Source: Escherichia coli O157:H7 | Lineage (GTDB): Bacteria; Pseudomonadota; Gammaproteobacteria; Enterobacterales; Enterobacteriaceae | Length of the DNA stretch: 64,000 bases | Assembly (NCBI RefSeq): GCF_013167455.1 | Contig: NZ_CP038328.1 | Direction: 5' to 3' (one strand) | Shown: piece after piece, positions 16,262-63,625 of the stretch | Position numbering within the stretch: the stretch's first letter is position 1 | Layout of the letters: each line of letters opens with the position of its first letter | Program-made: the position numbers and the translations under genes | The notes under the pieces: generated by a model | Told to the model about the DNA's origin: nothing | Databases searched by the model: none | Seen by the model: only the letters and a program-made list of their open reading frames with translations

Positions 16262-16275
16262 TTGATATATATCAA
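16262..16275 (+). promoter_or_regulatory. FNR box TTGAT-ATAT-ATCAA upstream of pdeF, with candidate -10 TAGAAT at 16297-16302
   Basis: Perfect TTGAT-N4-ATCAA palindrome; centre about 32 bp upstream of the -10 candidate, as for class II FNR promoters; 128 bp upstream of the pdeF ATG. Confidence 0.55.
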
Positions 16276-30557: not shown

Positions 30558-31406
30558 TCAGGATTCCTGACGTAAATAAATAGCCCGATAACAAATACTC
30601 ACCAGCACTGCACCGCCGATAATATTACCCAGCATCACCGGGAGCAGATTGGCGGTAATAAAATGGCTGACCGTCAGTGCAGGAAAATTGTCTGCGCTAC
30701 TGTGCGCCAGTTGCCAGAAGGAGGTAGGGGCGAAATGGCGAATGGCAATGGCGAACGGAATCACAAACAAATTGGCGATACAGTGCTCAAAGCCACTGGC
30801 GACAAACAGGGTGATGGGCAAAATCATGGCGACGATTTTGTCGCATAACGAACGCCCGCAATAACTCATCCACAGCGCCAGGCAAACCATCAGATTGCAC
30901 ATAATGCCGAGGCTGACAGATTCAGTAAATGTATGATGCATTTTGCCCTCGGCGCAGTGTAAAACCGCGACTCCCCACATCGCGTTTTCACTCATCACCA
31001 GCCCGGAAAACCAGATTAACAAACTGAAACAGGCAATACCTGCCAGATTACCGCAGGCCACCAGAAGTGCGTTAATCAGCCAAGTTCGCCAACTAATAAC
31101 GCCCCGACTTTTTGCCATCACCGTCATTACCGACGAGGTGAACAGGCTGGTGCCGCAAACCGCCAGCAAAATAAAGCCGAGTGTAAAGCAAAGGCCGCCC
31201 ACCAGATGGGTTAATGCCTGTGAAGACGGGGCATCGGCGATAACGGAAAGGTAAAAAGTAAATCCGATCGCCATAAACACGCCAGCGGACATCGCCATTA
31301 AAAAGACCGACACTTTACTGCGGGCAATTTTATGGGCGGCAATCCGTTCAGCGATTGCCGCTTTTCTGGCGCTCAACTGCAAGTCGAAAGAGAGTTTGTT
31401 TCTCAT
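30558..31406 (-). CDS. focB: formate channel FocB (FNT family)
   Basis: Track ORF 282 aa; last gene of the hyf locus. Confidence 0.9.
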   Translation of the reverse strand: MRNKLSFDLQLSARKAAIAERIAAHKIARSKVSVFLMAMSAGVFMAIGFTFYLSVIADAPSSQALTHLVGGLCFTLGFILLAVCGTSLFTSSVMTVMAKSRGVISWRTWLINALLVACGNLAGIACFSLLIWFSGLVMSENAMWGVAVLHCAEGKMHHTFTESVSLGIMCNLMVCLALWMSYCGRSLCDKIVAMILPITLFVASGFEHCIANLFVIPFAIAIRHFAPTSFWQLAHSSADNFPALTVSHFITANLLPVMLGNIIGGAVLVSICYRAIYLRQES

Positions 31407-31427
31407 GCATACTCCTGCAAAAGCAGA

Positions 31428-33440
31428 TTACAACACCTCGCGAACCGAGATCCCCAGACGCTGCATTCGTGACAGCAGCGTGGTGCGCTTCATCCCTAAT
31501 CGTGTCGCCGCGCCACGGGGCCCGGCAACAATGCCATTGGTTTCTCGCAATACCTGAACAATGCGCTGACGTTCTTCTTCGTCATTCTCTGGCGTCGTCG
31601 GGTGCAGCAACTGCGCCATTGAACTGCGAAGCGCTGAATCTTCATTTAGCGTCGGCAGTAAACGGCTTTGTCGGACATTAAGATGTAAATTCAGACTGTT
31701 ACCGCGAGTCAGCAGTACCGCTCGCTCAATCACGTTTTCCAGCTCGCGCACGTTGCCCGGCCAATCCCACGACATCAACTGGCGTAGTGCCTCGGTCGGG
31801 ATGGCGTCAATTGCGCGATTCATATGGCGCGCCATTTTTTGCGTGAAATGTTTTGCTAAAAGAGGGATATCTTCCGGACGGTCTCGCAGCGGCGGCAATT
31901 CCAGTGGGAAGACATTCAGGCGATAAAAGAGATCGCTGCGAAACTGGCGATCTTCAACCATTTGCCACAAATCACGGTTGGTGGCGGCAATGACTCTGAC
32001 ATTCACCGGGATCGTTCTACTCCCGCCGAGACGCTCAATTTCCCGCTCCTGCAATACGCGCAGCAATTTAGGCTGAAGTTCTAACGGCAGATCGCCAATT
32101 TCATCGAGAAACAACGTACCGCCATCGGCAATTTCAAAACGACCACGATGGGTATTAATCGCACCAGTAAAGGCCCCTTTGTCATGACCGAATAACTCAC
32201 TTTCCAGAAGACTGGCGGGGATGGCAGCGCAGTTGATTTTGACCAGCGGCTTGTCGCGTCGCGGGCTAAGTTGATGGATCGCTCTGGCGATCACCTCTTT
32301 GCCGGTTCCGGTTTCACCACAAATCAACACCGTACTGTCGCTCTTCGCCACAATATCTACCTGCTGGAGCAGGTCTTCCATTGCCTGGCTTTGATAGATA
32401 ATGTCACCGACGCCCAGATTCGAAAGGAGCTGCTCGCTAAGCTGGTGGTTTTCTTGCTGCAAACTTTCCTGCAAATCGGTCATGCTACGCCAGGCATCGG
32501 CATTGCCAACGGCAATAGCGATGCGATCGGCTATGTGTTGTAGTAGCTGGCAGTTTTCCTCACTAAAGAGAGTGGTAGAGGTATGCGCCAGCAACAATGC
32601 ACCCGGTGTATGGTTGCCAAAGGTAAGCGGTATCAGGAGCGAAGATTCGCAGCCGTTAGATGCAAGTAAGTGTAATAACGGGTCGCGTTGCCAGAGAAAC
32701 AGATCGTCTGCACGGTGCGTCAAGGTCGGTTGTCGGGTTTGTAGCGTTTGTGTCAGCAATACACTGTCGCCAGGCATATTGCGTGGCAGACACGCACAAT
32801 GTGAGGCAGAAAGATCGCTGCACCACAGGCTGAACTTCTCGTTCTTTCGATGATCGCCCAGTACCATACTGACTGAAGCCAGACCGAAAAAATGATGGAT
32901 CTCACGAGCGACGTCAGCGATCAGATCGTCGAGATCAAGATGTGACAGCACTGCATTAGTGATATCCACCAGTACCCGATGATGATCGCGATCTTTCTCC
33001 AGCAAACGCAGCGCCACCTGTTGTTCTTCATCATTGAGCCATGATTGCAGAACCGGGGTGATAATGCGTGCCAGCCAGTTAAACAGTGTGCAATCCTGGG
33101 GAGTAAAACGACTGCCGTGGGTGCGAATAAAGCGTAGCTCCGCCATTCCACTACTGCCGAGAAGGACGGCGTGACGCGAATAATCGACCATCTCGCCCTG
33201 ATACTCTGTTGTTGCCGTCACATCGCTGCCATCATCATGGTAGCGGTAATAGAAGTTGCTTTTGAGAACATGCAGTTCAATAAGTTGTACCGGGCTGAAC
33301 GGCGGCGGCAGCGGGATGAAGGCGCGTAATAAAGACGCCTTGCCGTGTTTCTGCGCTAACCGCTCTGCGAGCATTCCGTTTACCGCTTCAATTGTTATTC
33401 CTTGCGGCGGGGCAAACATCGCCTCGTCTGACATAGCCAT
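31428..33440 (-). CDS. hyfR: sigma54-dependent transcriptional activator HyfR
   Basis: Track ORF 671 aa (TTG at 33443, ATG at 33440); AAA+ GETGTGKE Walker A and C-terminal HTH. Confidence 0.9.
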   Translation of the reverse strand: MAMSDEAMFAPPQGITIEAVNGMLAERLAQKHGKASLLRAFIPLPPPFSPVQLIELHVLKSNFYYRYHDDGSDVTATTEYQGEMVDYSRHAVLLGSSGMAELRFIRTHGSRFTPQDCTLFNWLARIITPVLQSWLNDEEQQVALRLLEKDRDHHRVLVDITNAVLSHLDLDDLIADVAREIHHFFGLASVSMVLGDHRKNEKFSLWCSDLSASHCACLPRNMPGDSVLLTQTLQTRQPTLTHRADDLFLWQRDPLLHLLASNGCESSLLIPLTFGNHTPGALLLAHTSTTLFSEENCQLLQHIADRIAIAVGNADAWRSMTDLQESLQQENHQLSEQLLSNLGVGDIIYQSQAMEDLLQQVDIVAKSDSTVLICGETGTGKEVIARAIHQLSPRRDKPLVKINCAAIPASLLESELFGHDKGAFTGAINTHRGRFEIADGGTLFLDEIGDLPLELQPKLLRVLQEREIERLGGSRTIPVNVRVIAATNRDLWQMVEDRQFRSDLFYRLNVFPLELPPLRDRPEDIPLLAKHFTQKMARHMNRAIDAIPTEALRQLMSWDWPGNVRELENVIERAVLLTRGNSLNLHLNVRQSRLLPTLNEDSALRSSMAQLLHPTTPENDEEERQRIVQVLRETNGIVAGPRGAATRLGMKRTTLLSRMQRLGISVREVL

Positions 33441-33469
33441 CAACAGTCCTTATTAATGAGAAATCCTTC

Positions 33470-33883
33470 TCACGCAATTTTTCTGGCCATCAGATAGATA
33501 GCCGGTTCCAGCACAATTTCATCCAACAGATGAATGAATTGAATGCTACGCGCTTGCCACACAGACGTCGCGTCATCTGCCAGTGGCGCGAATGCCCGGG
33601 TCAACAGGGCGGTGTGGCTGGCGTCAATAACAATCTCACCAAAAGTCATCACCCCCAGCATCTTACGTCGGGCTTGCTCCTCTTCGACCAGTGCAAGCCA
33701 ATCTTCGTATTCCGTCAGTGGGCAGCGGAAGGTGACATTCAGACAATCAATCACGCCAACGTGATGACCGATAGCCAGCGAGTAATACATTACCTGGGAG
33801 CTGTGTTCCGGCATCTCGTCGCTACTGGCGACAAACTTTTTTCGCAGCGTCCAGAAAACAATTTCCCCGCACTCTTCAGTCAT
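33470..33883 (-). CDS. hyfJ: hydrogenase-4 component J (HycH-like maturation factor)
   Basis: Track ORF starts at 33946; ATG 33883 gives the recognised [12 protein letters not shown]-terminus; overlaps hyfI 3' end. Confidence 0.85.
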
Positions 33884-34634
33884 GTAACCCCCGGAGTACG
33901 CGAAAGAGTTGCTGAACGATACTATTGAGACGTGGATCGTCGGCATCGCGCAACCAGGTGTTAACCCGATTTCCTGTAGGATCGTTGCTTAAATGGCGCA
34001 GGAGCCGATCGCAAATTTCTTGCCCCTGACGATAGCCCGCCAGCCGCCGCGCTTCTCGCTCAATGGCGATACGCTGTGATGGCGGGATCTGCGGCCACAA
34101 CGGTTGCATAGTCACCCCGGTGGGATCGCGATAATCCACCGCGTGAATCTTCTGTTGCAGCAAACCGAGCGCCACGGCGAAACCGTGAATGGTGGCGGCC
34201 GGTGTTGGCGGGCAGCCGGGGATCCAAACATCAATGGGGACAATGGTGTCGCTGCCGCCCCAGACGCTGTAGAGATCGTGGAAAATACCGCCGCCGACAC
34301 CGCACGCGCCGTAGGAAACACAGATTTTATGATCGGGGGCAGACTCATACGCCCGAAGTGCAGGCATACGCATCGCCCGGGTGACTGCGCCAGTAAATAA
34401 CAAAATATCGGCGTGACGCGGTGATGAAACAACCTTAATGCCAAAACGTTCTGCGTCGAATACGGGTGTGATGGCGGCAAAAATTTCGATTTCACAGGCG
34501 TTGCAGCCGCCGCAATCGACGCGATAAACGTAGGCTGAGCGACGGATATCCTGTAGCAAATGCCGCTTCATCTTTTGCGTTTGCTCGTCCAGCGTGATGG
34601 GCTGGCTGACATGTTGTGTAAGCACTGGACTCAT
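33876..34634 (-). CDS. hyfI: hydrogenase-4 small subunit (NuoB-like)
   Basis: Track ORF 252 aa; NuoB-type Cys ligands. Confidence 0.9.
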
Positions 34635-35176
34635 AGCTGCTCCTTAGCCACCAGCGGTACATCTGTATCGTCGTTGATCAGCGTCGCGCGTTGTTTGCAC
34701 TCCGGGCAGACGCTCGCTTGCGCCCGCAACATTTCGCGGTTTTGTGGCGCATTTTGTTGCTGTGCCAACAATTCAGCAGCCAGTGCGACGGTTTTTTGCG
34801 GGGCAAACGGGCGTTCGCAACGGCTGCAACGTTGTAGATGGAACGTCGCGCGGGTATAGAGATCGGCTTTATTGGTGACGGTCAGTTCAAAGTTATTGGT
34901 AAGCTGGATGGCTCTGGTCGGGCACACTTCTTCACAACGTCCGCAGTAAATACAACGCCCCAGATAGAGCTGCCAGGTGCGCGAATTTTGCTGGTCGTCG
35001 GTCTGGATAGTCAGCGCATTTGTCGGACAAGCACAGGCGCAGGCACCACAGGCAATACATTGGCTGGGCATCAGGTCCGGTTTCCCGCGAAAGCCTGGGC
35101 TGACCTCCAGTGGCGCGAAGGGATATTTCACCGTCGCGGTTCCGGCGCGCATAATAGTTTTCAGTAACTTCAGCAT
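34631..35176 (-). CDS. hyfH: hydrogenase-4 2[4Fe-4S] ferredoxin subunit
   Basis: Track ORF 181 aa; CxxCxxCxxxCP motifs. Confidence 0.9.
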
Positions 35177-35185
35177 CTTCTGTCC

Positions 35186-36901
35186 TTACTTCAGCGGCGA
35201 ACGGTTACGATCAATGCCGTAGCGTTCGATCTCTTTATACGGCACGGTTTTTGACTGGCGCTTGCGCACATCAACCAGCGTCACACGGTCGGTACAGGAG
35301 TAGCAGGGATCAAGGCTACCGATAATCAGCGGTGCGTCAGAAACGGTATTGCCGCGCAGCATGTAACGCAACACCGGCCAGTTGGCGTAGGTGGCGGCAC
35401 GGCAGCGCCAGCGGAACAATTTTTGGTTATCACCGAGCATGCTCCAGTGCACGTCTTCACCGCGTGGCGCTTCAACAAAGCCGAGCGCGAATGCGTGAGG
35501 TTTATAGCTAAAGCCTTCGGTCAGCAGTGGGGTATCCGGCATGTTGTCGAGAGCAAATTCCAGCATTGCCAGCGAATCAAACGTCTCTTTGACACGGACC
35601 ATCACGCGGGAGAAAACATCGCCGCCGGTGAAGGTAAACAGTGTTTTTGGAATATTGCCGTAGTCGGCGTAGGGGTGATCAAAGCGCAAATCACGGGCAA
35701 AACCACTGCCGCGGATCAGCGGCCCTACAGGGCTATAATCACGGGCGATTTGTCGGTCGAGAATGCCAATGCCCTGAGTGCGTTGTTCCATATTCGGCGT
35801 GGCAAGCAGCATTTCTACCAGCTCCGACACGTCGGCGCGCATCTCGCGCACCAGTTTCAGCGTTTGCAGACGTTGCTCTTTGAGAATATCGCGGCGAACA
35901 CCACCAATCAGATTCAGACCGTAGGTTTTACGCGACCCGGTCAGCAATTCCGCCATTGTCATCGACTTTTCCCGCACGCGGAAAAATTGCATAAAGCCGG
36001 TATCAAATCCAACAAAATGGCAGGAGAGGCCAAGGTTGAGCAAATGACTGTGTAGCCGTTCGACTTCCAGCAGAATCGAGCGAATGGTATGCGCTCGTTG
36101 CGGCACCTCAATCCCCAGTGCATTTTCAACCGAGTTGGTATAGGCCACACTGTGGGCAAAACCGCAAATCCCACACACGCGGTCCGATAAGAAGGTCACT
36201 TCGTTGTAGCCCATCCGCGTTTCTGCCAGTTTCTCCATGCCGCGATGGACATAAAACAGACGGTAATCAGCATCGACAATTTGCTCGCCATCCACAAACA
36301 AGCGGAAGTGACCCGGTTCATCGGAGGTGATATGCAGCGGGCCGACAGGGATCACCCGCGCACCGCTGTTGCCCTCATTGATAAACGGATACGTTTCGGA
36401 ATCAGTCGTCGGTTCAGGGCGCAGTCGATAATCCATCGCATCTTTGCGCAGCGGATGCATATCTTCCGGCCAGTCATCGGGCAACACCAGGCGACGCTGA
36501 TCCGGCAGGCCAACCGGAATCAGCCCGTACATATCACGAATTTCTCGCTCGCCCCAGACCGCGGCAGGGACGCGCGGTGTGACTGACGGAAACTCCCGAC
36601 TGTCGGCATCGACCAGCGCCTTCACCACAATCCAGCATTTTTCGGCCCCTTCCATTGAAAGGGCATAATAAACCGCGTAATGACCGTTAAGTGTCCGCTC
36701 GTCGTTGCCAAACAGGACCGGAAGCCAGCCATCATGTTGATAATAAAGATACTGTACAACGTCAGGCAGCAGATTGATTTTCACCGTAATGGTGACCTGT
36801 TCAGGCGTTTGTCGCTCTTCATCCAGCACCGCGCCGGGGAACTGCGTTTTCAGGGCGGCGAGAATCGCTTCGCCACGATTTGACGATGAATTAACGTTCA
36901 C
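35186..36901 (-). CDS. hyfG: hydrogenase-4 large [NiFe] subunit (NuoCD-like)
   Basis: Track ORF starts at ATG 36946 with no SD; in-frame GTG at 36901 has a GGAG SD and overlaps the hyfF stop; exact start uncertain; C-terminal DPCxxC nickel ligands. Confidence 0.88.
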
Positions 36902-38471
36902 TGTGTTTCTCCGAAACAGATGCGGTGCCTGAAGGCAAAAAATCATGCCAGGTGCTACGTTGTGCAGGCAGGTCGTGCGTCCCTGAGAGGACTATAGTGG
37001 AAGCGCCCGCCAGGATCCTGATGACAGGTTGTGGAATATGCGTTCCCATCGCCAGCATCATGACCAGCAGAATCACCATTGGCGAGGTGGTCAACCAGCC
37101 GAGATCACCCCGGTTAACGGCCTGCGGCGGTTTCGCCATTAACACCCGCGCAGCCATCCGTACCAGGCCCGCCAGCACCAGCGTTAACAGCAATAACAGC
37201 AGGACGATAATCAGCAGGTGATTACGTGCCAGTCCGGCGGTAACGGTCATAAATTCGCTAAGAAAAATGTTGAAGGGCGGCATCCCTGCCAGCGCCAGCG
37301 CACCGCCGCCAAACAGCACGGCGGTAAATGGCATGATTTTGAGCATCCCACAGACGACGTTGAGATCGCGCGTGCCGTACTTGAGCAGTACATTGCCGGA
37401 ACCGCAGAACAGCAGCGTTTTTGCCAGACTGTGGTTTAAGGTGTGCAGCAGCGCGGCAAAAATTCCCAGCGGCCCGCCAATGCCTAGCGCCACCGCGACC
37501 AGTCCCATGTTCTCCACGCTGGAGTACGCCAGCAGACGCTTAATGTCCCGCTGTACCAGAATGAAAAATGCCGCCACGGCAACCGACAACATGCCGAAGA
37601 TGAGCAACAACCGGTTGGGGAAATCGCTGCCGATGGCCTGGCAAATAATGATGTAATAGCGAATCAGCACCAACAGCGCGCAGTTCAGCAATACGGCGGA
37701 GAGTAGGGCGCTGACCGGACTCGGCGCTTCACTGTGAGCATCCGGCAGCCAGGCGTGCATGGGAAATAGCCCGGTTTTGGTACCAAAGCCAATTAGCACA
37801 AACACAAAGGCCAACAGCATTAATGTTGGATCAAGCAAGGACGATTGCTTAAGAACCTCGCTCCAGAATATCGCCATTTCTGCCTGCGGCATAACGCTGG
37901 CGGCGTTGGCGTATACCAGCACGGTACCGAACAGACCAAAAGCGACACCAACAGTACAAATAATGATGTACTTCCATGCTGCTTCCAGCGATGAACGCTG
38001 ACCGTAAATGCCTACCAGAAACGCCGAGCTTAAGGTGGTGGCTTCGATCGCCGCCCACATCACAATCAGGTTATTGCTGGTAACAACCAGCAGCATGGTG
38101 AACAAAAACAGATGGAAGAAACCGTAGTAATCGCACAGCGTAACGGGTGAAAGCTCGCCGTGCTCAACTTCATGACGCATGTAGCCAATCGAGTAAACAC
38201 CGGTGAGAAAGCCAATCACACCAAGAATGGCGAGGAACAAACCGCCCAGACCATCAATATGAAGCCACAGTCCCGCAGCGAATATTTCTCCTGCATCAGC
38301 GGCAGTTTGGACCACCCAGAGTGCCAGAATCAGCAGCAGTGTGATCCCTAAGCTATGTAATACTGTCACCGTGCGAGTCGCAGAGTGCCCTCGTTTCCGG
38401 CAGGCAAAACAGAGCAGCGAAAAAAGCAGCGGAGTGAGCAGGAGTAAAGCGAACATCACAGAATAACTCAT
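36891..38471 (-). CDS. hyfF: hydrogenase-4 antiporter-like membrane subunit (NuoL/M/N family)
   Basis: Track ORF 526 aa; polytopic. Confidence 0.9.
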
Positions 38472-38475
38472 CTCA

Positions 38476-39126
38476 TTATCCCTTCAGCGCGGTCAAGTTG
38501 TTCACGTCCAGCGTGCCGTGGGTACGCCATATTTTTCTTGCCAGTAACACCATCACAATGACGGCGAAGATGGCGTCGGTAGCGATACCAATTTCCACCA
38601 GTTCCGGTGCACGCCAGGCTAGAAGCGCCAGCACCAGATGGGAGCCGTTTTCCATCAGGCAGTAACCAAAAATTTGCCGCAGGATATTGCGCTGGCTAAC
38701 AATGCACAGCAGGCCAAGCAGAAAATGACCTAACGCCACCGCCAGCGCTGGTTTCAGCCCGGTAGCCATCGGTAGCTTCACGGGCTGAACGACAAATGCG
38801 CAAAGCAGGACAATTAACGCCGCGAGCAGTGCCATCATTGCCGGACCGAATAACGCTTTTTCCGGGATGTTCTGGGGAATATTTCGTGCAGCGTAAGTCA
38901 TGATTAACGGTACCAGCAGCACTTTGGTGATAAAGGCGCTGGCGGACCAGATCAGCAGTTGCTCTGCGGCGAACAGGCACGAGAGGGTGGCGAAAATAGA
39001 CACCAGCACCAGCGACTGGCAGGCGTAAAATCCGCATGACAGGCGATAGCTTTTGACGCTAATCACAAACAGCGATGTCAGCATCATCAGTCCCGCCAGA
39101 TTATTTACGATCATAGAACCGGTCAT
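38476..39126 (-). CDS. hyfE: hydrogenase-4 membrane subunit E
   Basis: Track ORF 216 aa; polytopic. Confidence 0.88.
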
Positions 39127-39137
39127 TCATCATCTCC

Positions 39138-57927: not shown

Positions 57928-59628
57928 TTACATCAACTGACTTTCCTCACCCTCCGCAGAGCGAAAGCTAATACTCACTAACGTGCCGCCGCCGGAAGGT
58001 TGTGAAAAAGTCAGCGTCCCACCTAGCCGTTCCGCGCGTTCGCGCATGATATTCAGACCATAATGACCTTCGGGTTCTTTCGGTTCACCGATACCAATCC
58101 CGTTATCACGGATATAAACCGTGTGATTGCCGTCCGGCGCGGTGACGCAACTGACGGCGATTTCGCTGGCGTTGGCGTGCTTCATCGCATTCAGCACCGC
58201 TTCGCGAATAATTTGCAACAAATGCACCTGCATTTGCGCATCCAGTGCCAGGGTTGGCAGACGGCAGTCGAGGGTCAGTTTGGCGCTGGTTTGATTTTGT
58301 AACGTATCCAGAATTTCCCTCAACGCGGAGGGGAGATCCGCCTGCTGCAGCGTCAGGCGAAAAGTAGTCAACAGCTCGCGTAACTGCCGATAAGCATCAT
58401 TCAACGCCTGGGAAAAATCGGCCATGATACTTTGTGCGGTGGCGTTATCTTCCGGTATCGAACGCTTAAGTAACGTCAACTGGATACGTAAGTAAGAAAG
58501 TACCTGAGCCAGCGAGTCGTGCAATTCGCGGGCGATGGTTGCACGTTCTTCCATCAACAATAACTGCTGAAAATGCTTCTGCGCCTGATTAAAGTACAAA
58601 CCGCGTCCCAGCATCGACGAAACGCTGTTAAGCAGCGGTTCTGATGATGAAACGTGACTATTTTGCCAGTGCAGTTCGCCGTAAACCGTCTCTTGCATTG
58701 TCACCGGTAAAATCTGCATCGGCAATTCCGGGTTTGGTTGCCCTTCGCTAATCCGCCAGTTTTCACCGACATTTAACTCCAGATATTCAGCCGCTTCATT
58801 GTCGCGAACAATCTGCAAAATATGGCGGAAACAATGCACATCAATCTGGCTGGTGTTCAGCGCCTGCGAACATTGATACAACACCTCCAGACGACGCTTG
58901 GCCTCGTGGAGATCGCGGGTCTTTTCTTCTACTGACGCCTCCAGCGAACGGTACAATTTATGCAGCTCGCTCGACATCTGGTTAAAGGTTTTTGCAAGTA
59001 GACCAAGCTCATTCGGCAGGCTGGTATCCAGCGGTGGCGAGTCGAACTGTCCGTGTTCAATACGCTGACTGGCGGTAACCAGCTGATTCAGCGGGGCAAC
59101 CACCTGATGGCGTATGCGGCCCAAAGTAAAAAAGACCAGCGTGAAAATACCGATACCGCCAGCCAGGGAAATCGCCACCACCAGCAGCATTTTGCGTTCA
59201 GCGTAGTGCTGTAAAGCCAGCACGAACAGGTCTATCTGATTAACATAATTATTAATATTGGCCTGATACCACGGCAAATCGCCCTTGCTGAGCCGATTAT
59301 TCATCTCCAGCCAGTTGGCATTCAGATGCGCATAGCGAGTTTTTACTGCTTCTGGCACATACCAGACGTTGAGGTTGGTTAATACCGGTGAATGCAGTGC
59401 CTGCTGAAACAGCTGGCGATGTGCATTGAGTTGTGGAGTGCCACTTTGCAAGTCGTAGCCCAGGCGGTAACTCTGCATACGCAGCGATCCGGCAATATTG
59501 ATAGCCTCAGCGTCGCGCAAACTGCTCGCCAGAGTTAGCAGAGCGATACCCGTGGAAAGAATCGACAGCAGCACAATGTAAAAAAAGGCCCGGGCCAGAC
59601 TGGCCGAGACGGGTCGTTTAACAATCAC
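57928..59628 (-). CDS. narQ: nitrate/nitrite sensor histidine kinase NarQ
   Basis: Track ORF starts at GTG 59643; in-frame GTG at 59628 gives the recognised (M)IVKRPVSASLARAFFY. Confidence 0.93.
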   Translation of the reverse strand: MIVKRPVSASLARAFFYIVLLSILSTGIALLTLASSLRDAEAINIAGSLRMQSYRLGYDLQSGTPQLNAHRQLFQQALHSPVLTNLNVWYVPEAVKTRYAHLNANWLEMNNRLSKGDLPWYQANINNYVNQIDLFVLALQHYAERKMLLVVAISLAGGIGIFTLVFFTLGRIRHQVVAPLNQLVTASQRIEHGQFDSPPLDTSLPNELGLLAKTFNQMSSELHKLYRSLEASVEEKTRDLHEAKRRLEVLYQCSQALNTSQIDVHCFRHILQIVRDNEAAEYLELNVGENWRISEGQPNPELPMQILPVTMQETVYGELHWQNSHVSSSEPLLNSVSSMLGRGLYFNQAQKHFQQLLLMEERATIARELHDSLAQVLSYLRIQLTLLKRSIPEDNATAQSIMADFSQALNDAYRQLRELLTTFRLTLQQADLPSALREILDTLQNQTSAKLTLDCRLPTLALDAQMQVHLLQIIREAVLNAMKHANASEIAVSCVTAPDGNHTVYIRDNGIGIGEPKEPEGHYGLNIMRERAERLGGTLTFSQPSGGGTLVSISFRSAEGEESQLM

Positions 59629-59833
59629 ACGCGTCTTCTCCACAAAAAATCATTAATGTTCCAGTTCGCTGAAACGCAATTTAGTTAGTGATGGGATTAT
59701 TTGATCTGCCACAGTTTATAGCGAAATAGTTACTTATTCTGGGCACATGAACATTGCCGATTCCCCTGTAAGTCGGGTAATAACAACACTCATATAAAGA
59801 ATAAGGTTTTTACAACCAAAAAAGAAGGTCGTT

Positions 59834-61813
59834 ATGAATCGTTTTATTATGGCCAACAGTCAGCAATGTCTGGGTTGTCATGCTTGTGAAATCGCTTGTG
59901 TCATGGCTCACAATGATGAGCAACATGTCCTGAGCCAACACCATTTTCATCCCCGAATTACGGTTATCAAACATCAGCAGCAACGTAGTGCAGTGACCTG
60001 TCACCATTGTGAAGATGCGCCCTGCGCCCGTAGCTGCCCTAATGGCGCAATCAGCCACGTTGATGACAGCATTCAGGTCAATCAGCAAAAGTGTATTGGC
60101 TGTAAATCCTGCGTGGTGGCCTGTCCGTTTGGTACGATGCAAATCGTCCTGACACCCGTCGCAGCGGGCAAAGTTAAAGCCACGGCGCATAAATGCGACC
60201 TTTGTGCAGGGCGCGAAAACGGTCCTGCCTGTGTCGAGAATTGCCCGGCGGACGCGCTGCAGCTGGTCACTGACGCCGCACTCTCAGGCATGGCGAAATC
60301 CCGCCGCTTGCGTACCGCACGTCAGGAACATCAACCGTGGCATGCCAGTACCGCTGCACAAGAAATGCCGGTAATGAGTAAAGTCGAACAAATGCAGGCA
60401 ACGCCCGCGCGTGGCGAGCCGGATAAACTGGCGATTGAAGCGCGCAAAACCGGTTTTGATGAAATTTATCTGCCATTCCGTGCCGATCAGGCACAACGGG
60501 AAGCCTCGCGCTGCCTTAAATGCGGCGAGCACAGCGTTTGTGAATGGACCTGCCCGCTGCATAACCATATACCGCAGTGGATTGAACTGGTGAAAGCCGG
60601 AAACATCGACGCCGCCGTCGAGCTTTCTCACCTGACCAACACCCTGCCGGAAATTACCGGACGCGTTTGTCCGCAAGACCGTTTGTGTGAAGGTGCCTGT
60701 ACTATTCGCGATGAGCACGGTGCGGTAACTATCGGCAACATTGAACGCTACATTTCAGATCAGGCGTTGGCGAAAGGTTGGCGTCCTGACTTAAGCCATG
60801 TCACCAAAGTGGACAAGCGGGTGGCGATTATCGGTGCAGGTCCGGCAGGGCTGGCCTGTGCGGATGTTCTGATCCGCAATGGCGTGGCGGTGACGGTGTA
60901 CGATCGCCATCCAGAAATCGGTGGCTTGCTCACTTTCGGCATTCCTTCTTTCAAACTGGATAAATCCCTGCTGGCACGTCGTCGGGAAATCTTCAGCGCG
61001 ATGGGGATTCACTTCGAACTCAATTGTGAAGTGGGTAAAGATGTCTCTTTGGATTCGCTTTTGGAACAATACGACGCGGTCTTCGTTGGCGTAGGCACTT
61101 ACCGTTCCATGAAAGCGGGTTTACCCAATGAAGATGCGCCGGGCGTTTATGACGCGCTGCCGTTCCTCATCGCCAACACTAAACAGGTGATGGGGCTCGA
61201 AGAGCTACCGGAAGAGCCGTTTATCAATACCGCCGGACTTAACGTCGTGGTACTGGGCGGCGGCGACACCGCGATGGACTGTGTGCGTACTGCGCTGCGC
61301 CACGGCGCGAGTAACGTCACCTGCGCTTATCGTCGTGATGAAGCTAACATGCCAGGCTCGAAGAAAGAGGTGAAGAACGCCCGCGAAGAGGGGGCCAACT
61401 TCGAATTTAACGTCCAGCCGGTGGCGCTTGAGCTGAATGAACAAGGTCACGTCTGCGGGATTCGTTTCCTGCGCACGCGTCTTGGCGAGCCGGATGCCCA
61501 GGGGCGTCGGCGTCCAGTGCCGGTGGAAGGCAGTGAATTTGTCATGCCAGCCGACGCGGTGATTATGGCGTTTGGCTTCAATCCGCACGGGATGCCGTGG
61601 CTGGAGTCGCACGGTGTAACGGTAGACAAATGGGGCCGCATCATCGCGGATGTGGAAAGCCAGTACCGTTACCAGACCACCAATCCGAAAATCTTCGCCG
61701 GTGGCGACGCCGTGCGTGGTGCGGATCTGGTGGTTACCGCAATGGCAGAAGGACGTCATGCGGCACAGGGGATTATTGACTGGCTGGGGGTAAAATCAGT
61801 CAAATCTCACTGA
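59834..61813 (+). CDS. aegA: anaerobically expressed Fe-S / GltD-like NAD(P)H oxidoreductase AegA
   Basis: Track ORF 659 aa; N-terminal 4x CxxCxxCxxxC, C-terminal GltD-like domain with GAGPAG dinucleotide motif. Confidence 0.9.
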   Translation: MNRFIMANSQQCLGCHACEIACVMAHNDEQHVLSQHHFHPRITVIKHQQQRSAVTCHHCEDAPCARSCPNGAISHVDDSIQVNQQKCIGCKSCVVACPFGTMQIVLTPVAAGKVKATAHKCDLCAGRENGPACVENCPADALQLVTDAALSGMAKSRRLRTARQEHQPWHASTAAQEMPVMSKVEQMQATPARGEPDKLAIEARKTGFDEIYLPFRADQAQREASRCLKCGEHSVCEWTCPLHNHIPQWIELVKAGNIDAAVELSHLTNTLPEITGRVCPQDRLCEGACTIRDEHGAVTIGNIERYISDQALAKGWRPDLSHVTKVDKRVAIIGAGPAGLACADVLIRNGVAVTVYDRHPEIGGLLTFGIPSFKLDKSLLARRREIFSAMGIHFELNCEVGKDVSLDSLLEQYDAVFVGVGTYRSMKAGLPNEDAPGVYDALPFLIANTKQVMGLEELPEEPFINTAGLNVVVLGGGDTAMDCVRTALRHGASNVTCAYRRDEANMPGSKKEVKNAREEGANFEFNVQPVALELNEQGHVCGIRFLRTRLGEPDAQGRRRPVPVEGSEFVMPADAVIMAFGFNPHGMPWLESHGVTVDKWGRIIADVESQYRYQTTNPKIFAGGDAVRGADLVVTAMAEGRHAAQGIIDWLGVKSVKSH

Positions 61814-61880
61814 TAGCCTGCGCAGACAAACCCGACTTCACAGCGTAATATAATTGTTCATTTCGCGCTGTGGAGTCGGT

Positions 61881-62456
61881 ATGACGCAACAAATCACCCT
61901 CATTAAAGACAAAATTCTCTCCGATAACTATTTCACCCTGCACAACATTACTTACGATCTCACGCGCAAAGATGGCGAAGTTATCCGCCATAAACGTGAA
62001 GTTTACGATCGCGGTAATGGTGCGACGATCCTCCTGTACAACGCGAAGAAAAAGACCGTGGTTCTGATTCGTCAGTTCCGTGTCGCTACCTGGGTTAATG
62101 GCAATGAAAGCGGGCAGCTGATTGAAACCTGCGCCGGGCTGCTGGATAACGACGAACCGGAAGTGTGCATTCGCAAAGAAGCGATTGAAGAGACGGGCTA
62201 TGAAGTGGGCGAAGTGCGCAAATTATTTGAACTGTATATGTCGCCAGGCGGTGTGACTGAGCTAATCCACTTTTTTATCGCCGAATACAGTGACAATCAG
62301 CGCGCTAACGCCGGTGGCGGTGTCGAAGATGAAGATATTGAAGTGCTCGAGCTGCCGTTCAGCCAGGCGCTGGAGATGATCAAAACCGGCGAGATACGTG
62401 ACGGTAAGACGGTGTTATTGCTTAACTATTTGCAAATGTCACATTTAATAGACTGA
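61881..62456 (+). CDS. nudK: GDP-mannose pyrophosphatase NudK (Nudix)
   Basis: Track ORF starts at 61854; recognised N-terminus [11 protein letters not shown] (GTG 61881); Nudix box. Confidence 0.88.
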
Positions 62457-62581
62457 AAAATAACAATAATATTTCGTTGTTTATTCTTGGCTCAATCCGA
62501 CAAATCCGATTGAGCCGCGCTACCTGCGCAACGAAGATACGACTTGTGCTGTTTGTTTGAACTTCTGGGGTCGTACCGTCC

Positions 62582-63625
62582 ATGCGCTATCGCATTTTCC
62601 TTCTCTTTTTTTTCGCTTTGTTGCCGACGTCTTTGGTGTGGGCGGCACCAGCGCAACGGGCGTTTTCCGACTGGCAGGTCACCTGTAATAACCAAAACTT
62701 CTGCGTGGCGCGTAATACGGGCGATCATAATGGACTGGTGATGACCCTGAGCCGCAGCGCCGGGGCGCATACCGATGCCGTTTTACGTATTGAGCGCGGC
62801 GGGTTGAAGTCGCCGGATGCGTCTGAAGGGGAAATTGCGCCACGGCTGCTGTTAGATGGCGAGCCGTTGGCGTTAAGTGGTGACAAGTGGCGGATTTCAC
62901 CATGGTTATTAGTAACCGATGATACGGCAACCATCACCGCGTTTTTGCAGATGATTCAGGAAGGGAAGGCGATCACCTTACGCGACGGCAATCAGACCAT
63001 TTCTCTGAGTGACTTAAAAGCGGCGTTGTTGTTTATTGATGCTCAGCAAAAGCGCGTTGGCAGTGAAACCGCGTGGATCAAGAAAGGGGACGAACCGCCG
63101 CTCAGCGTACCGCCCGCGCCTGCGCTGAAAGAGGTCGTGGTGGTTAACCCAACGCCGACGCCACTCTCACTCGAAGAACGCAACGATTTGCTGGATTATG
63201 GAAACTGGCGGATGAATGGTCTGCGCTGCTCGCTTGATCCATTGCGTCGTGAGGTGAATGTCACTGCGCTGACTGATGATAAAGCGCTGATGATGATTAG
63301 CTGTGAGGCAGGGGCCTATAACACCATTGATTTGGCATGGATTGTGTCGCGTAAAAAGCCGCTGGCCTCGCGCCCGGTCCGGCTGCGTTTGCCGTTCAAC
63401 AACGGTCAGGAGACGAATGAACTGGAACTGATGAACGCAACATTTGATGAGAAATCGCGTGAACTGGTGACCTTAGCGAAAGGGCGCGGATTAAGCGATT
63501 GTGGCATTCAGGCGCGCTGGCGCTTTGACGGTCAGCGTTTTCGCCTGGTGCGTTACGCCGCAGAACCCACCTGCGATAACTGGCATGGGCCAGACGCCTG
63601 GCCCACGTTGTGGATCACCCGTTAA
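62582..63625 (+). CDS. ypfG: YpfG, periplasmic DUF1176-type protein of unknown function
   Basis: Track ORF 347 aa; N-terminal signal peptide; several Cys pairs. Confidence 0.85.
   Translation: MRYRIFLLFFFALLPTSLVWAAPAQRAFSDWQVTCNNQNFCVARNTGDHNGLVMTLSRSAGAHTDAVLRIERGGLKSPDASEGEIAPRLLLDGEPLALSGDKWRISPWLLVTDDTATITAFLQMIQEGKAITLRDGNQTISLSDLKAALLFIDAQQKRVGSETAWIKKGDEPPLSVPPAPALKEVVVVNPTPTPLSLEERNDLLDYGNWRMNGLRCSLDPLRREVNVTALTDDKALMMISCEAGAYNTIDLAWIVSRKKPLASRPVRLRLPFNNGQETNELELMNATFDEKSRELVTLAKGRGLSDCGIQARWRFDGQRFRLVRYAAEPTCDNWHGPDAWPTLWITR

Follow-up and report, generated by a model that had tools for sequence, protein, structure and literature searches.

AegA of Escherichia coli: a three-module iron-sulfur flavoprotein and candidate relay of electrons from formate to NAD(P)+

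The gene at positions 59834 to 61813 of the window (the entire 64-kb stretch of E. coli O157:H7 DNA analysed here) is, effectively with certainty, E. coli aegA, which encodes a soluble iron-sulfur flavoprotein of 659 residues. From its sequence, AegA is a fusion of three modules: a HycB/HydN-type ferredoxin, a GltD/DPD-type Fe-S module, and an FAD plus NAD(P)H module. Its most likely function, which has been proposed before, would be that of an electron relay from formate dehydrogenase H (FDH-H) to NAD(P)+ in support of reductive urate catabolism. Transcription of the gene is modestly induced in the absence of oxygen, and this induction probably acts through a weak candidate FNR site at 59701-59714. 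As a whole, this account of identity, architecture, mechanism, and regulation is considered reasonably probable; the direction of electron flow, from formate through AegA to NAD(P)+, falls a little short of an even chance.

AegA and its paralogue YgfT are the sole candidates for bringing formate-derived electrons to the anaerobic catabolism of urate, a process of medical relevance given that gut bacteria lower host urate. The analysis offers several experimental handles: the invariant cofactor residues, the dispensable narQ linkage, an FNR half-site, a conserved upstream block, and a hairpin in front of nudK.

Identity and conservation of the locus

The gene and its immediate surroundings comprise the following features:

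59834..61813, plus strand: aegA coding sequence (open reading frame, NF009408 match, RefSeq annotation)
59823..59828, plus strand: aegA Shine-Dalgarno sequence AGAAGG, 5 nt before the ATG
57928..59628, minus strand: narQ, nitrate/nitrite sensor histidine kinase of 566 residues (NF008184, 925 bits, cutoff 553; RefSeq)
59629..59833, no strand assigned: narQ-aegA divergent intergenic region, 205 bp (RefSeq starts; footprint of 76 sequences)
58948..58964, plus strand: published sigma54 ChIP-seq site IA19, ACGGTACAATTTATGCA, inside narQ (PMC4591121; exact match in the window)

The plus-strand reading frame starts with ATG and specifies 659 residues plus a stop. Its product aligns from 1 to 659 of 659 with the NCBIfam equivalog NF009408, at 1395 bits (cutoff 1003), and identical DNA carries the RefSeq annotation aegA, between the divergent narQ and nudK. 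Thus the original prediction named the gene correctly, and for this reason the finding is an ordinary one: aegA is an already annotated and already known gene that belongs to the core genome of E. coli (5425 of 5426 complete genomes). The DNA of the locus is 100% identical to O157-type chromosomes, and the window shows no departure from the reference at aegA. The AGAAGG sequence before the start codon is kept in many genera, and the gene order acrD-(narQ)-aegA-nudK-ypfG, with narQ allowed to be present or absent, is seen in 77 of 81 loci. NF009408 bears the name "formate-dependent uric acid utilization protein AegA", a name that rests on reports from genetics that aegA is needed for the formate-dependent use of urate. 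The description of AegA as under-characterised is a fair one; the literature consists of genetic evidence and proposals, and no enzymology of AegA was found in the publications surveyed.

The divergent arrangement with narQ is confirmed, although the left edge of the intergenic region was first placed at 59644 on the assumption that narQ starts at the GTG at 59643, the start of the longest open reading frame. RefSeq instead starts narQ at the GTG at 59628, 15 nt further in, and the NF008184 NarQ model, which aligns from residue 7 of the longest frame, agrees with this start. The intergenic region therefore spans 59629-59833, or 205 bp. The sigma54 site IA19 within narQ is antisense to that gene and directed toward aegA (PMC4591121).

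Architecture and cofactor motifs of AegA

The modules and motifs of the protein map as follows:

59834..60313, plus strand: HycB/HydN-type ferredoxin domain, residues 1-160 (16 Cys; NF007658, E 4e-52; 7Z0S_B, E 2e-35)
60446..60778, plus strand: Fer4_20 (DPD domain II / GltD N-terminal), residues 205-315 (Pfam PF14691, E 6e-37)
60818..61753, plus strand: FAD and NAD(P)H domains, residues 329-640 (Pfam PF07992, E 6e-29)
60833-60850, plus strand: GAGPAG, residues 334-339 (motif search)
61256-61273, plus strand: GGGDTA, second dinucleotide motif, residues 475-480 (motif search)
residues 499-501 of AegA, plus strand: YRR motif (motif search)

The first 137 residues contain 16 cysteines in four groups, and residues 1-160 are predicted to hold four [4Fe-4S] clusters. 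Four CxxCxxCxxxC motifs had been expected within the first 150 residues; four motifs of the [4Fe-4S] type are indeed present, but only two have the literal spacing (C12xxC15xxC18xxxC22 and C87xxC90xxC93xxxC97), while the other two are variants (C56xxC59x4C64xxxC68 and C121xxC124x8C133xxxC137). All 16 cysteines align with those of HycB (PDB 7Z0S_B, E 2e-35). The HydN model NF007658 gives 176 bits, which is below its full-length cutoff of 260 because AegA is a fusion.

The remainder of the protein resembles GltD, the small subunit of NADPH-glutamate synthase. The presence of a GltD-like domain with GAGPAG, behind a ferredoxin-like N-terminus, is upheld by Pfam, NCBIfam, and PDB alignments: TIGR01318 scores 877 bits (cutoff 483), Azospirillum (A.) brasilense GltD is the top match in the PDB (6S6S_G, E 3e-120), and GAGPAG lies at residues 334-339. 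The Fer4_20 region, with candidate ligands at Cys 227, 230, 236, 240, 279, 285, and 289 plus E304, is predicted to hold two further [4Fe-4S] clusters; by analogy with its homologues, E304 would be a cluster ligand. The YRR motif aligns with the YRR of NADPH-dependent GltD and NfnB. In an alignment of 79 sequences, made up of 78 AegA-type proteins (the window plus orthologues) and YgfT, the 23 cluster cysteines, E304, GAGPAG, GGGDTA, and YRR are invariant. The motif pattern is not due to chance.

Relatives of AegA

Several characterised systems share parts of this architecture. YgfT (UacF; NF009451) is a full-length paralogue, 54% identical, with the same HycB-like and GltD-like fusion, every cofactor residue in common, and, like AegA, a reported formate-dependent urate phenotype. 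The two are nevertheless distinct equivalogs, since AegA scores only 870 bits against the YgfT model, under its cutoff of 1154. Their settings also differ. The ygfT gene lies inside the purine cluster, is followed by ygfS, is divergent from the urate permease gene uacT, and has a sigma54 site and strong urate induction, whereas aegA stands alone beside narQ and acrD and is only modestly induced by urate.

GltD (6S6S_G, 2VDC_G) aligns end to end with AegA residues ~190-651 and shares the two [4Fe-4S] motifs, GAGPAG, GGGDTAMD, and YRR. However, it lacks the N-terminal four-cluster ferredoxin domain, and it works bound to the large subunit GltB, while no gltB-like gene adjoins aegA. HycB and HydN (7Z0S_B; NF007658) have 16 cysteines in register with AegA 1-160, and the N-terminal residues are similar (MNRFIMA in AegA, MNRFVIA in HycB). 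Unlike these proteins, AegA has its ferredoxin domain covalently joined to a flavoprotein; in addition, the third and fourth Cys motifs are separated by 9 residues in AegA and by a stretch of 36 in HycB. YgfK shares the Fer4_20 and Pyr_redox_2 modules (TIGR03315 match, E 2e-72), but it is a flavin-dependent reductase of 1032 residues that acts on 2,8-dioxopurine and has an extra FMN/DHOD-like part for catalysing reduction of the purine ring; AegA has no substrate-reducing domain.

NfnB, the large subunit of NADH-dependent ferredoxin:NADP+ oxidoreductase (5JCA_L, 4YLF_B), contains a GltD-like module like that of AegA (E 2e-93) and a Glu at the position of E304. This likeness raises the idea that AegA is an NfnB-like bifurcating or confurcating enzyme, whose FAD would couple NADPH, a low-potential ferredoxin-like chain, and a second acceptor of higher potential. 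Such a mechanism has been suggested in a review (PMC8097209), and it would draw on how closely AegA matches the NfnI large subunit (5JCA_L, E 2e-93) and on the conservation of the Glu ligand position in AegA, GltD, and NfnB. Yet GltD has identical features and does not bifurcate. Furthermore, Nfn requires NfnA (FAD plus [2Fe-2S]), and AegA has neither an NfnA-like domain or subunit, with its second flavin and [2Fe-2S] cluster, nor a neighbouring gene for one. Bifurcation by AegA is considered very unlikely.

Proposed role in formate-dependent urate catabolism

According to papers that cite Iwadate & Kato 2019 (PMC8097209, PMC12507026), formate-dependent use of urate needs both aegA and ygfT, and that study proposed that AegA and YgfT pass electrons from FDH either to NADP+ or to urate. 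In the relay favoured here, the oxidation of formate by FDH-H would deliver low-potential electrons to the HycB-like domain of AegA, either directly or through ferredoxins of the HydN, YsaA, or HycB type. Between the partner protein and the FAD, the six clusters would act as a wire; the FAD would accept the electrons and then pass them to NAD(P)+. The NAD(P)H so formed would supply both reductive steps in the anaerobic degradation of urate, those of XdhD-YgfM and YgfK, with AegA acting redundantly with YgfT. On this scheme AegA and FdhF together may constitute the missing soluble formate:NAD(P)+ oxidoreductase of E. coli.

Published work bears on several of these steps. Two-hybrid partners of AegA are HycB, HydN, YsaA, and HyfA; the AegA-FdhF two-hybrid test is negative, and deletion of aegA leaves both the benzyl-viologen activity of FDH-H and H2 production unchanged (PMC6004506). 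The reductive urate pathway consumes four electrons, NAD(P)H was used in assays of recombinant YgfK, and structural models suggest that YgfM holds the FAD through which electrons of NAD(P)H reach XdhD (PMC12507026). In the structure of formate hydrogenlyase, HycB is the subunit on which FdhF docks, and its loop between the B3 and B2 Cys motifs contacts HycF and HycE. We infer that the 36-residue HycB stretch missing from AegA is this loop. In that case, the electrons in AegA would go on to the GltD-like domain of the same protein and not to a hydrogenase.

Gene neighbourhoods add no independent support for coupling to FDH: in a search for distant relatives with this fusion near formate dehydrogenase genes, a single cluster among representatives at 50% identity has the full fusion, and it is YgfT-like, with a YgfS-like neighbour. 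The remaining GltD-like proteins in that set bear different N-terminal modules.

Electrons might also run the other way, from NAD(P)H to FAD and through the six clusters to a partner reductase such as XdhD or directly to a purine, making AegA an NAD(P)H-dependent donor. Glutamate synthase and dihydropyrimidine dehydrogenase work in this direction, and GltD (E 3e-120) and DPD are the closest solved relatives. The same direction is one of two options in a review (PMC8097209), and the alternative of Iwadate, as quoted by others, is transfer "directly to uric acid". However, this direction leaves the requirement for formate and FDH-H unexplained. XdhD comes with an FAD subunit, YgfM, and YgfK contains a GltD-like module itself; moreover, the N-terminus of AegA is closer to the FdhF-docking HycB than to any acceptor-side protein. 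Flow from NAD(P)H is considered unlikely.

Another question is whether AegA is dedicated to urate at all. It might be a general module for anaerobic redox balancing, with YgfT as the urate-specific paralogue. Consistent with this idea, aegA lies away from the purine/urate cluster, its neighbours acrD, narQ, nudK, and ypfG are stable, and purine genes are found at none of 80 Enterobacteriaceae loci. The gene is also core (5425/5426 genomes), while ygfST is missing from ~220 genomes, and its induction by urate is modest. Liu et al. concluded that aegA, unlike ygfT and ygfK, was probably not involved under their conditions. Against this stand the genetic need for aegA in formate-dependent urate use, as relayed by the citing papers, and the NCBI family name given for urate use. 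In addition, the Celerinatantimonas homologue, at a single non-enterobacterial locus, comes after an adenosine deaminase gene. A purely general role is rated as quite unlikely, and the relay from FDH-H to NAD(P)+ is retained as the preferred function.

Anaerobic regulation of aegA

The following elements lie upstream of aegA:

59688..59707, no strand assigned: published AtoC ChIP target GTGATGGGATTATTTGATCT, overlapping the FNR half-site (PMC3118216)
59701..59714, no strand assigned: FNR-like candidate site TTGATctgcCACAG, 3 mismatches to TTGAT-N4-ATCAA
59731..59737, plus strand: single exact NarL heptamer TACTTAT, a weak candidate (consensus scan)
59739..59758, plus strand: most conserved upstream block, CTGGGCAcATGAACATTGCC (at least 90% column conservation)

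The expression of aegA is reportedly dependent on Fnr and repressed by nitrate through NarL, findings attributed to Cavicchioli et al. 1996. A scan for FNR, NarL, and NarP sites yields an FNR match with 3 mismatches and one NarL heptamer, and consensus matches of this kind are, taken alone, at chance level. The FNR-like match at 59701-59714 is the sole one in the intergenic region and has a perfect left half and a poor right half. Since the 64-kb window contains 348 matches of equal quality, it is not significant by itself. The left half, TTGATC (59701-59706), is at least 90% conserved among 76 distinct enterobacterial upstream sequences, whether narQ is present or absent.

Genome-wide studies support anaerobic control, as had been supposed. 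The aegA/narQ intergenic region is a target of FNR in ChIP-chip, and the site predicted under the peak, ATAAACTGTGGCAGATCAAATAAT (PMC1802558), is the reverse complement of window positions 59696-59719. For sigma70, occupancy at aegA/narQ is 912 under anaerobic conditions as against 294 with oxygen (PMC3688515 Table S2), and without oxygen the mRNA increases 2.5-fold for aegA and 2.8-fold for narQ (PMC3688515 Table S12). The FNR peak is called by two ChIP-chip studies but not by ChIP-seq, and no FNR site at aegA/narQ exceeds the position-weight-matrix threshold (PMC3688515 Table S5). In glucose minimal medium, aegA is absent from the table of operons differentially expressed in delta-fnr.

The original prediction held that divergence from narQ fits anaerobic control. 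The control itself is published; adjacency to narQ is not its cause. In 25 of 77 informative enterobacterial loci, narQ is missing between acrD and aegA, and these loci retain the TTGATC half-site and the other conserved upstream blocks of aegA. The linkage to narQ is thus dispensable.

In 205 bp read on both strands, chance alone would give about 0.2 exact NarL heptamers, and TACTTAT is not conserved outside E. coli in a comparison with E. albertii, Citrobacter, and Salmonella. No credible NarL 7-2-7 pair (TACYYMT) occurs within 4 mismatches in the aegA upstream region. Consensus scans give no credible promoter or terminator between narQ and aegA, nor any terminator downstream of aegA. Upstream of the gene the sequence allows several sigma70 pairings, none of them both good and conserved.

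A conserved block upstream of aegA

The block at 59739-59758 is better conserved than those parts of the FNR site that lie outside TTGATC. In other genera it reads GGCAA-ATGAACA-TTGCC, and in most genera its distance to the aegA ATG is fixed at 83-87 nt. It could be an operator that ties aegA, via some regulator, to its real physiological signal.

Several more specific readings of the block were rejected. As a sigma54 promoter, CTGGGCAC-N7-TTGCC has the arrangement GG-N12-GC, which is 2 bp longer than GG-N10-GC, and sigma54 ChIP-seq reports no site in the narQ-aegA intergenic region, only the intragenic narQ site (PMC4591121). Of PurR, ArcA, NsrR, IscR, ModE, MarA, sigmaE, sigma32, and sigma28, whose consensus sequences were compared with the block by eye, none agrees with it in both spacing and conservation. 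Nor is there support for a regulator site in common with the ygfT/xdhD/ygeW cluster, since GGCAA-N7-TTGCC matches no more often than by chance, both in 26 kb of the K-12 purine cluster and in the window. The block does contain an ATG or TTG start whose distance from aegA is constant. However, a conserved leader peptide is unsupported, because the reading frame has as few as 4 codons in some sequences and more than 29 in others, with M-x-I-A/V as the sole common element. An Rfam search of 59500-62700 with E up to 1 returns zero matches.

The aegA-nudK spacer

A side observation concerns the region downstream of aegA:

61832..61879, plus strand: conserved 14-bp hairpin in the aegA-nudK spacer (MFE -26.9 kcal/mol, z -3.2), masking the nudK ribosome-binding site

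Across 40 sequences, 94.4% of the hairpin cells are paired, versus ~40% in slid controls, and 6 of the 14 pairs show compensatory changes. The 3' arm covers the nudK Shine-Dalgarno sequence GGAG (61872-61875), and the loop opens with a -10-like TAATAT (61846-61851). In one reading, nudK would have a promoter of sigma70-like type whose spacer is filled by the hairpin, which would also pair with the nudK Shine-Dalgarno sequence. On transcripts that read through from aegA, translation of nudK would then be blocked; the transcript of nudK itself would start within the loop and be translated freely. In this way the hairpin may insulate nudK from aegA transcription.

Both the hairpin and the block at 59739-59758 appear to be undescribed so far. 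That the block is an undescribed operator, the hairpin an undescribed insulator, and AegA with FdhF a soluble formate:NAD(P)+ oxidoreductase is, as a joint proposition, rather doubtful. A published sigma70 ChIP-seq peak at K-12 position 2581511 corresponds to ~61868 in the window.

The aegA locus

AegA is encoded by a single long ORF of 659 aa (59834..61813, + strand, ATG start), exactly where the original prediction had placed it. The ORF matches the NCBIfam equivalog "formate-dependent uric acid utilization protein AegA" from end to end with 1395 bits (cutoff 1003), and the family already carries this matching name at NCBI. Published work already covers the gene, its architecture, control by anaerobiosis, and the connection with urate; the architecture was described by Cavicchioli 1996, as related by a citing paper. 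Several E. coli O157-type chromosomes carry the surrounding 2.6 kb with 100% identity, and the region, labelled narQ, aegA, and nudK by RefSeq, occurs in 5425 of the 5426 complete E. coli genomes; the locus shows no departure from the reference. Only the left edge needs correction. Position 59644 presumed that narQ starts at the GTG of its longest ORF (59643); in RefSeq, as in the NarQ family model, narQ begins at the GTG at 59628, which leaves 205 bp (59629-59833) as the divergent narQ-aegA intergenic region.

A synteny scan with one genome per species yielded 80 AegA-orthologue loci, among which the order acrD-narQ-aegA-nudK-ypfG is widely kept. The divergent narQ, which had been taken to fit anaerobic control, is present here and in 52 loci, but is missing between acrD and aegA in 25 of 77, where acrD lies directly upstream of aegA at 262-572 bp and the aegA upstream blocks are retained. 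These narQ-less loci include Klebsiella, Raoultella, Kluyvera, Pseudocitrobacter, and relatives (scan loci L026, L029-L039, L050-L053, L061, L065, L078, L080, and others). Thus, the narQ linkage is an ancestral neighborhood, not something that function requires. A single homologue (65% identity; locus L077:6462-9959 of Celerinatantimonas diazotrophica) came from outside the enterobacteria and lies, in this one case, directly downstream of the gene for adenosine deaminase, a purine-catabolic enzyme.

The paralogue YgfT is 54% identical to AegA across the full length. The xdhD-ygfK-ssnA purine cluster contains ygfT, which diverges from uacT (urate permease) and has behind it ygfS, the gene of a HycB-like ferredoxin that is free-standing. 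Of 5426 E. coli genomes, 5204 carry ygfST. A search of 1.84 billion proteins, representatives of clusters at 50% identity, brought up only one cluster in which the HycB-like and GltD-like parts are fused in full; it is YgfT-like with a YgfS-like neighbor, and the remaining GltD-like proteins carry other N-terminal electron-transfer modules. The fusion is therefore a restricted form, largely of enterobacteria, of a modular design that is itself widespread.

Architecture of AegA and a proposed route for formate-derived electrons

Sequence features of AegA (residue, motif)
C12: Cys group, CxxCxxCxxxC, literal spacing
C56: Cys group, CxxCx4CxxxC
C87: Cys group, CxxCxxCxxxC, literal spacing
C121: Cys group, CxxCx8CxxxC
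GltD-like part: seven Cys plus E304, the pattern of two further [4Fe-4S] clusters
334-339: GAGPAG
475-480: GGGDTA
499-501: YRR, aligned with the YRR of NADPH-dependent GltD and NfnB

Residues 1-137 contain 16 Cys in four groups. Four CxxCxxCxxxC motifs had been predicted; four groups are indeed present, but only those from C12 and C87 have the literal spacing. The N-terminal domain aligns with HycB, the FdhF-docking ferredoxin of formate hydrogenlyase (7Z0S_B, E 2e-35), with 16/16 Cys in register. Between the third and fourth Cys motifs, AegA has 9 residues and HycB about 36. In the formate hydrogenlyase structure paper, a HycB loop between two Cys motifs touches HycF and HycE, and we infer that this loop is the stretch shortened in AegA. 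The predicted GltD-like domain with its GAGPAG motif is confirmed: residues ~190-651 align end to end with GltD, the glutamate synthase small subunit (6S6S_G, E 3e-120), and also with NfnB and the N-terminal half of dihydropyrimidine dehydrogenase (DPD). An alignment of 79 sequences comprised 76 enterobacterial orthologues, the Celerinatantimonas homologue, the AegA of the window, and E. coli YgfT, the 77 homologues being translated from other genomes. All ORFs in it are intact (639-667 aa), and the cluster Cys, E304, GAGPAG, GGGDTA, and YRR are invariant in 79/79. Judged by these motifs, AegA is a soluble polypeptide with predicted sites for six [4Fe-4S] clusters and a single site each for FAD and NAD(P)H; its HycB-like end would be free for partner docking.

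Citing papers report that aegA and ygfT are required for formate- and FDH-H-dependent urate use, and relate a proposal that the proteins carry electrons to NADP+ or to urate. In two-hybrid assays AegA paired with HycB, HydN, YsaA, and HyfA, while FdhF was negative; deletion of aegA left FDH-H dye activity and H2 production unchanged (PMC6004506). FdhF is bound only loosely to HycB and may serve further partners. Reductive degradation of urate takes four electrons; assays of YgfK used NAD(P)H, and models suggest that NAD(P)H electrons reach XdhD via the FAD subunit YgfM (PMC12507026).

Our reading is that AegA would relay formate-derived electrons to NAD(P)+. The electrons would probably reach AegA via HydN, YsaA, or another small ferredoxin, and would go on to FAD and finally to NAD(P)+. 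The standard potentials of formate/CO2 and NAD(P)+/NAD(P)H are about -430 mV and about -320 mV, so that this flow would be downhill. AegA with FdhF would then constitute a formate:NAD(P)+ oxidoreductase, redundant with YgfT. The likeness to GltD and DPD also admits electron flow in the reverse direction, as in GltS and DPD, and that to NfnB an Nfn-like bifurcation, although the defining NfnA partner is absent. AegA may also have a general redox role that is not specific to urate.

The whole hyfABCDEFGHIJR-focB operon (formate hydrogenlyase-2, FHL-2) lies in the window at 30558-44187, 15.6 kb from aegA; its HycB-like ferredoxin, HyfA, gave a strong two-hybrid signal with AegA (PMC6004506).

Upstream region and anaerobic expression

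Features upstream of aegA
58948-58964 (+): exact copy of σ54 ChIP-seq site IA19, ACGGTACAATTTATGCA, inside narQ
59688-59707: AtoC ChIP target, GTGATGGGATTATTTGATCT
59701-59714: FNR-like match, TTGATctgcCACAG
59731-59737: NarL heptamer, TACTTAT
59739-59758: conserved block, CTGGGCAcATGAACATTGCC
59760-59783: imperfect inverted repeat, ATTCCCC-N7-CGGGTAAT

The sole FNR-like match in the narQ-aegA region has 3 mismatches, and because 348 matches in the window are as good, it means nothing as sequence alone. It is, however, the site predicted under a published aegA/narQ ChIP-chip peak of FNR (PMC1802558), and its TTGATC shows at least 90% conservation both where narQ is present and where it is missing (footprint of 76 distinct upstream sequences). 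The FNR peak was called by ChIP-chip and not by ChIP-seq, and has no matrix hit above threshold (PMC3688515 supplementary tables). Anaerobically, σ70 occupancy at aegA/narQ goes up to 912 from 294, mRNA without O2 is 2.5-fold (aegA) and 2.8-fold (narQ) higher, and aegA is not among the entries of the Δfnr differentially expressed operon table (PMC3688515). FNR control of aegA is thus probably real but weak under the conditions of that study. The published AtoC target (Pilalis et al. 2011) shares bases with the conserved TTGATC half of the FNR site, so that a σ54-type activator and FNR may compete for or share this DNA. Elsewhere, a perfect FNR consensus, TTGATATATATCAA (16262-16275), lies between yfgG and pdeF (yfgF); it is the yfgF/yfgG entry of published FNR ChIP-seq data, with the strongest matrix score nearby (-14.9).

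For NarL/NarP, one exact heptamer is present (~0.2 expected by chance); its conservation ends with E. coli. Cavicchioli et al. 1996 are reported to have found that nitrate represses aegA through NarL.

The best-conserved piece of the intergenic region is the block at 59739-59758, which in most genera forms an inverted repeat of 5 bp (GGCAA-N7-TTGCC) and precedes the aegA ATG by a fixed distance of 83-87 nt. It matches none of the regulators with which it was compared and no Rfam family, and has no counterpart in the ygfT cluster. The block looks like a σ54 promoter, but the spacing is 2 bp too long and σ54 ChIP-seq has no site there. It also holds an ATG or TTG that opens a mini-ORF of variable length (in E. 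coli, MNIADSPVSRVITTLI); a leader peptide was rejected, as the peptide is not conserved. The adjacent inverted repeat is E. coli-specific, poorly conserved in other genera, and probably not functional. The IA19 site (Bonocora et al. 2015) is antisense to narQ and points toward aegA, ~870 bp upstream of its ATG, and is of note given that the paralogous ygfT cluster is under σ54 control.

The aegA-nudK spacer

Features of the spacer
61825-61828: conserved GACA
61832-61845 paired to 61866-61879: 14-bp hairpin
61846-61851: TAATAT, invariant as TAnnAT
61872-61875: GGAG, nudK Shine-Dalgarno

The spacer of 67 bp contains a hairpin (-26.9 kcal/mol, z -3.2) with the nudK Shine-Dalgarno within its 3' arm. 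Across 40 enterobacterial spacers, pairing holds in 94.4% of cells versus about 40% in slid controls, and 6 of the 14 pairs show compensatory changes. The hairpin may block nudK translation on aegA read-through transcripts or stabilize the 3' end of aegA mRNA. On the minus strand it is followed by TTTGTC, and it could therefore be an antisense terminator. The 5' arm also fills the 17-bp spacer of a σ70-like promoter formed by GACA and TAATAT, and a published σ70 ChIP-seq peak maps onto the hairpin (window ~61868). A possible interpretation is that transcription from nudK's own promoter begins in the loop and leaves the ribosome-binding site free, whereas aegA read-through RNA folds and hides it.
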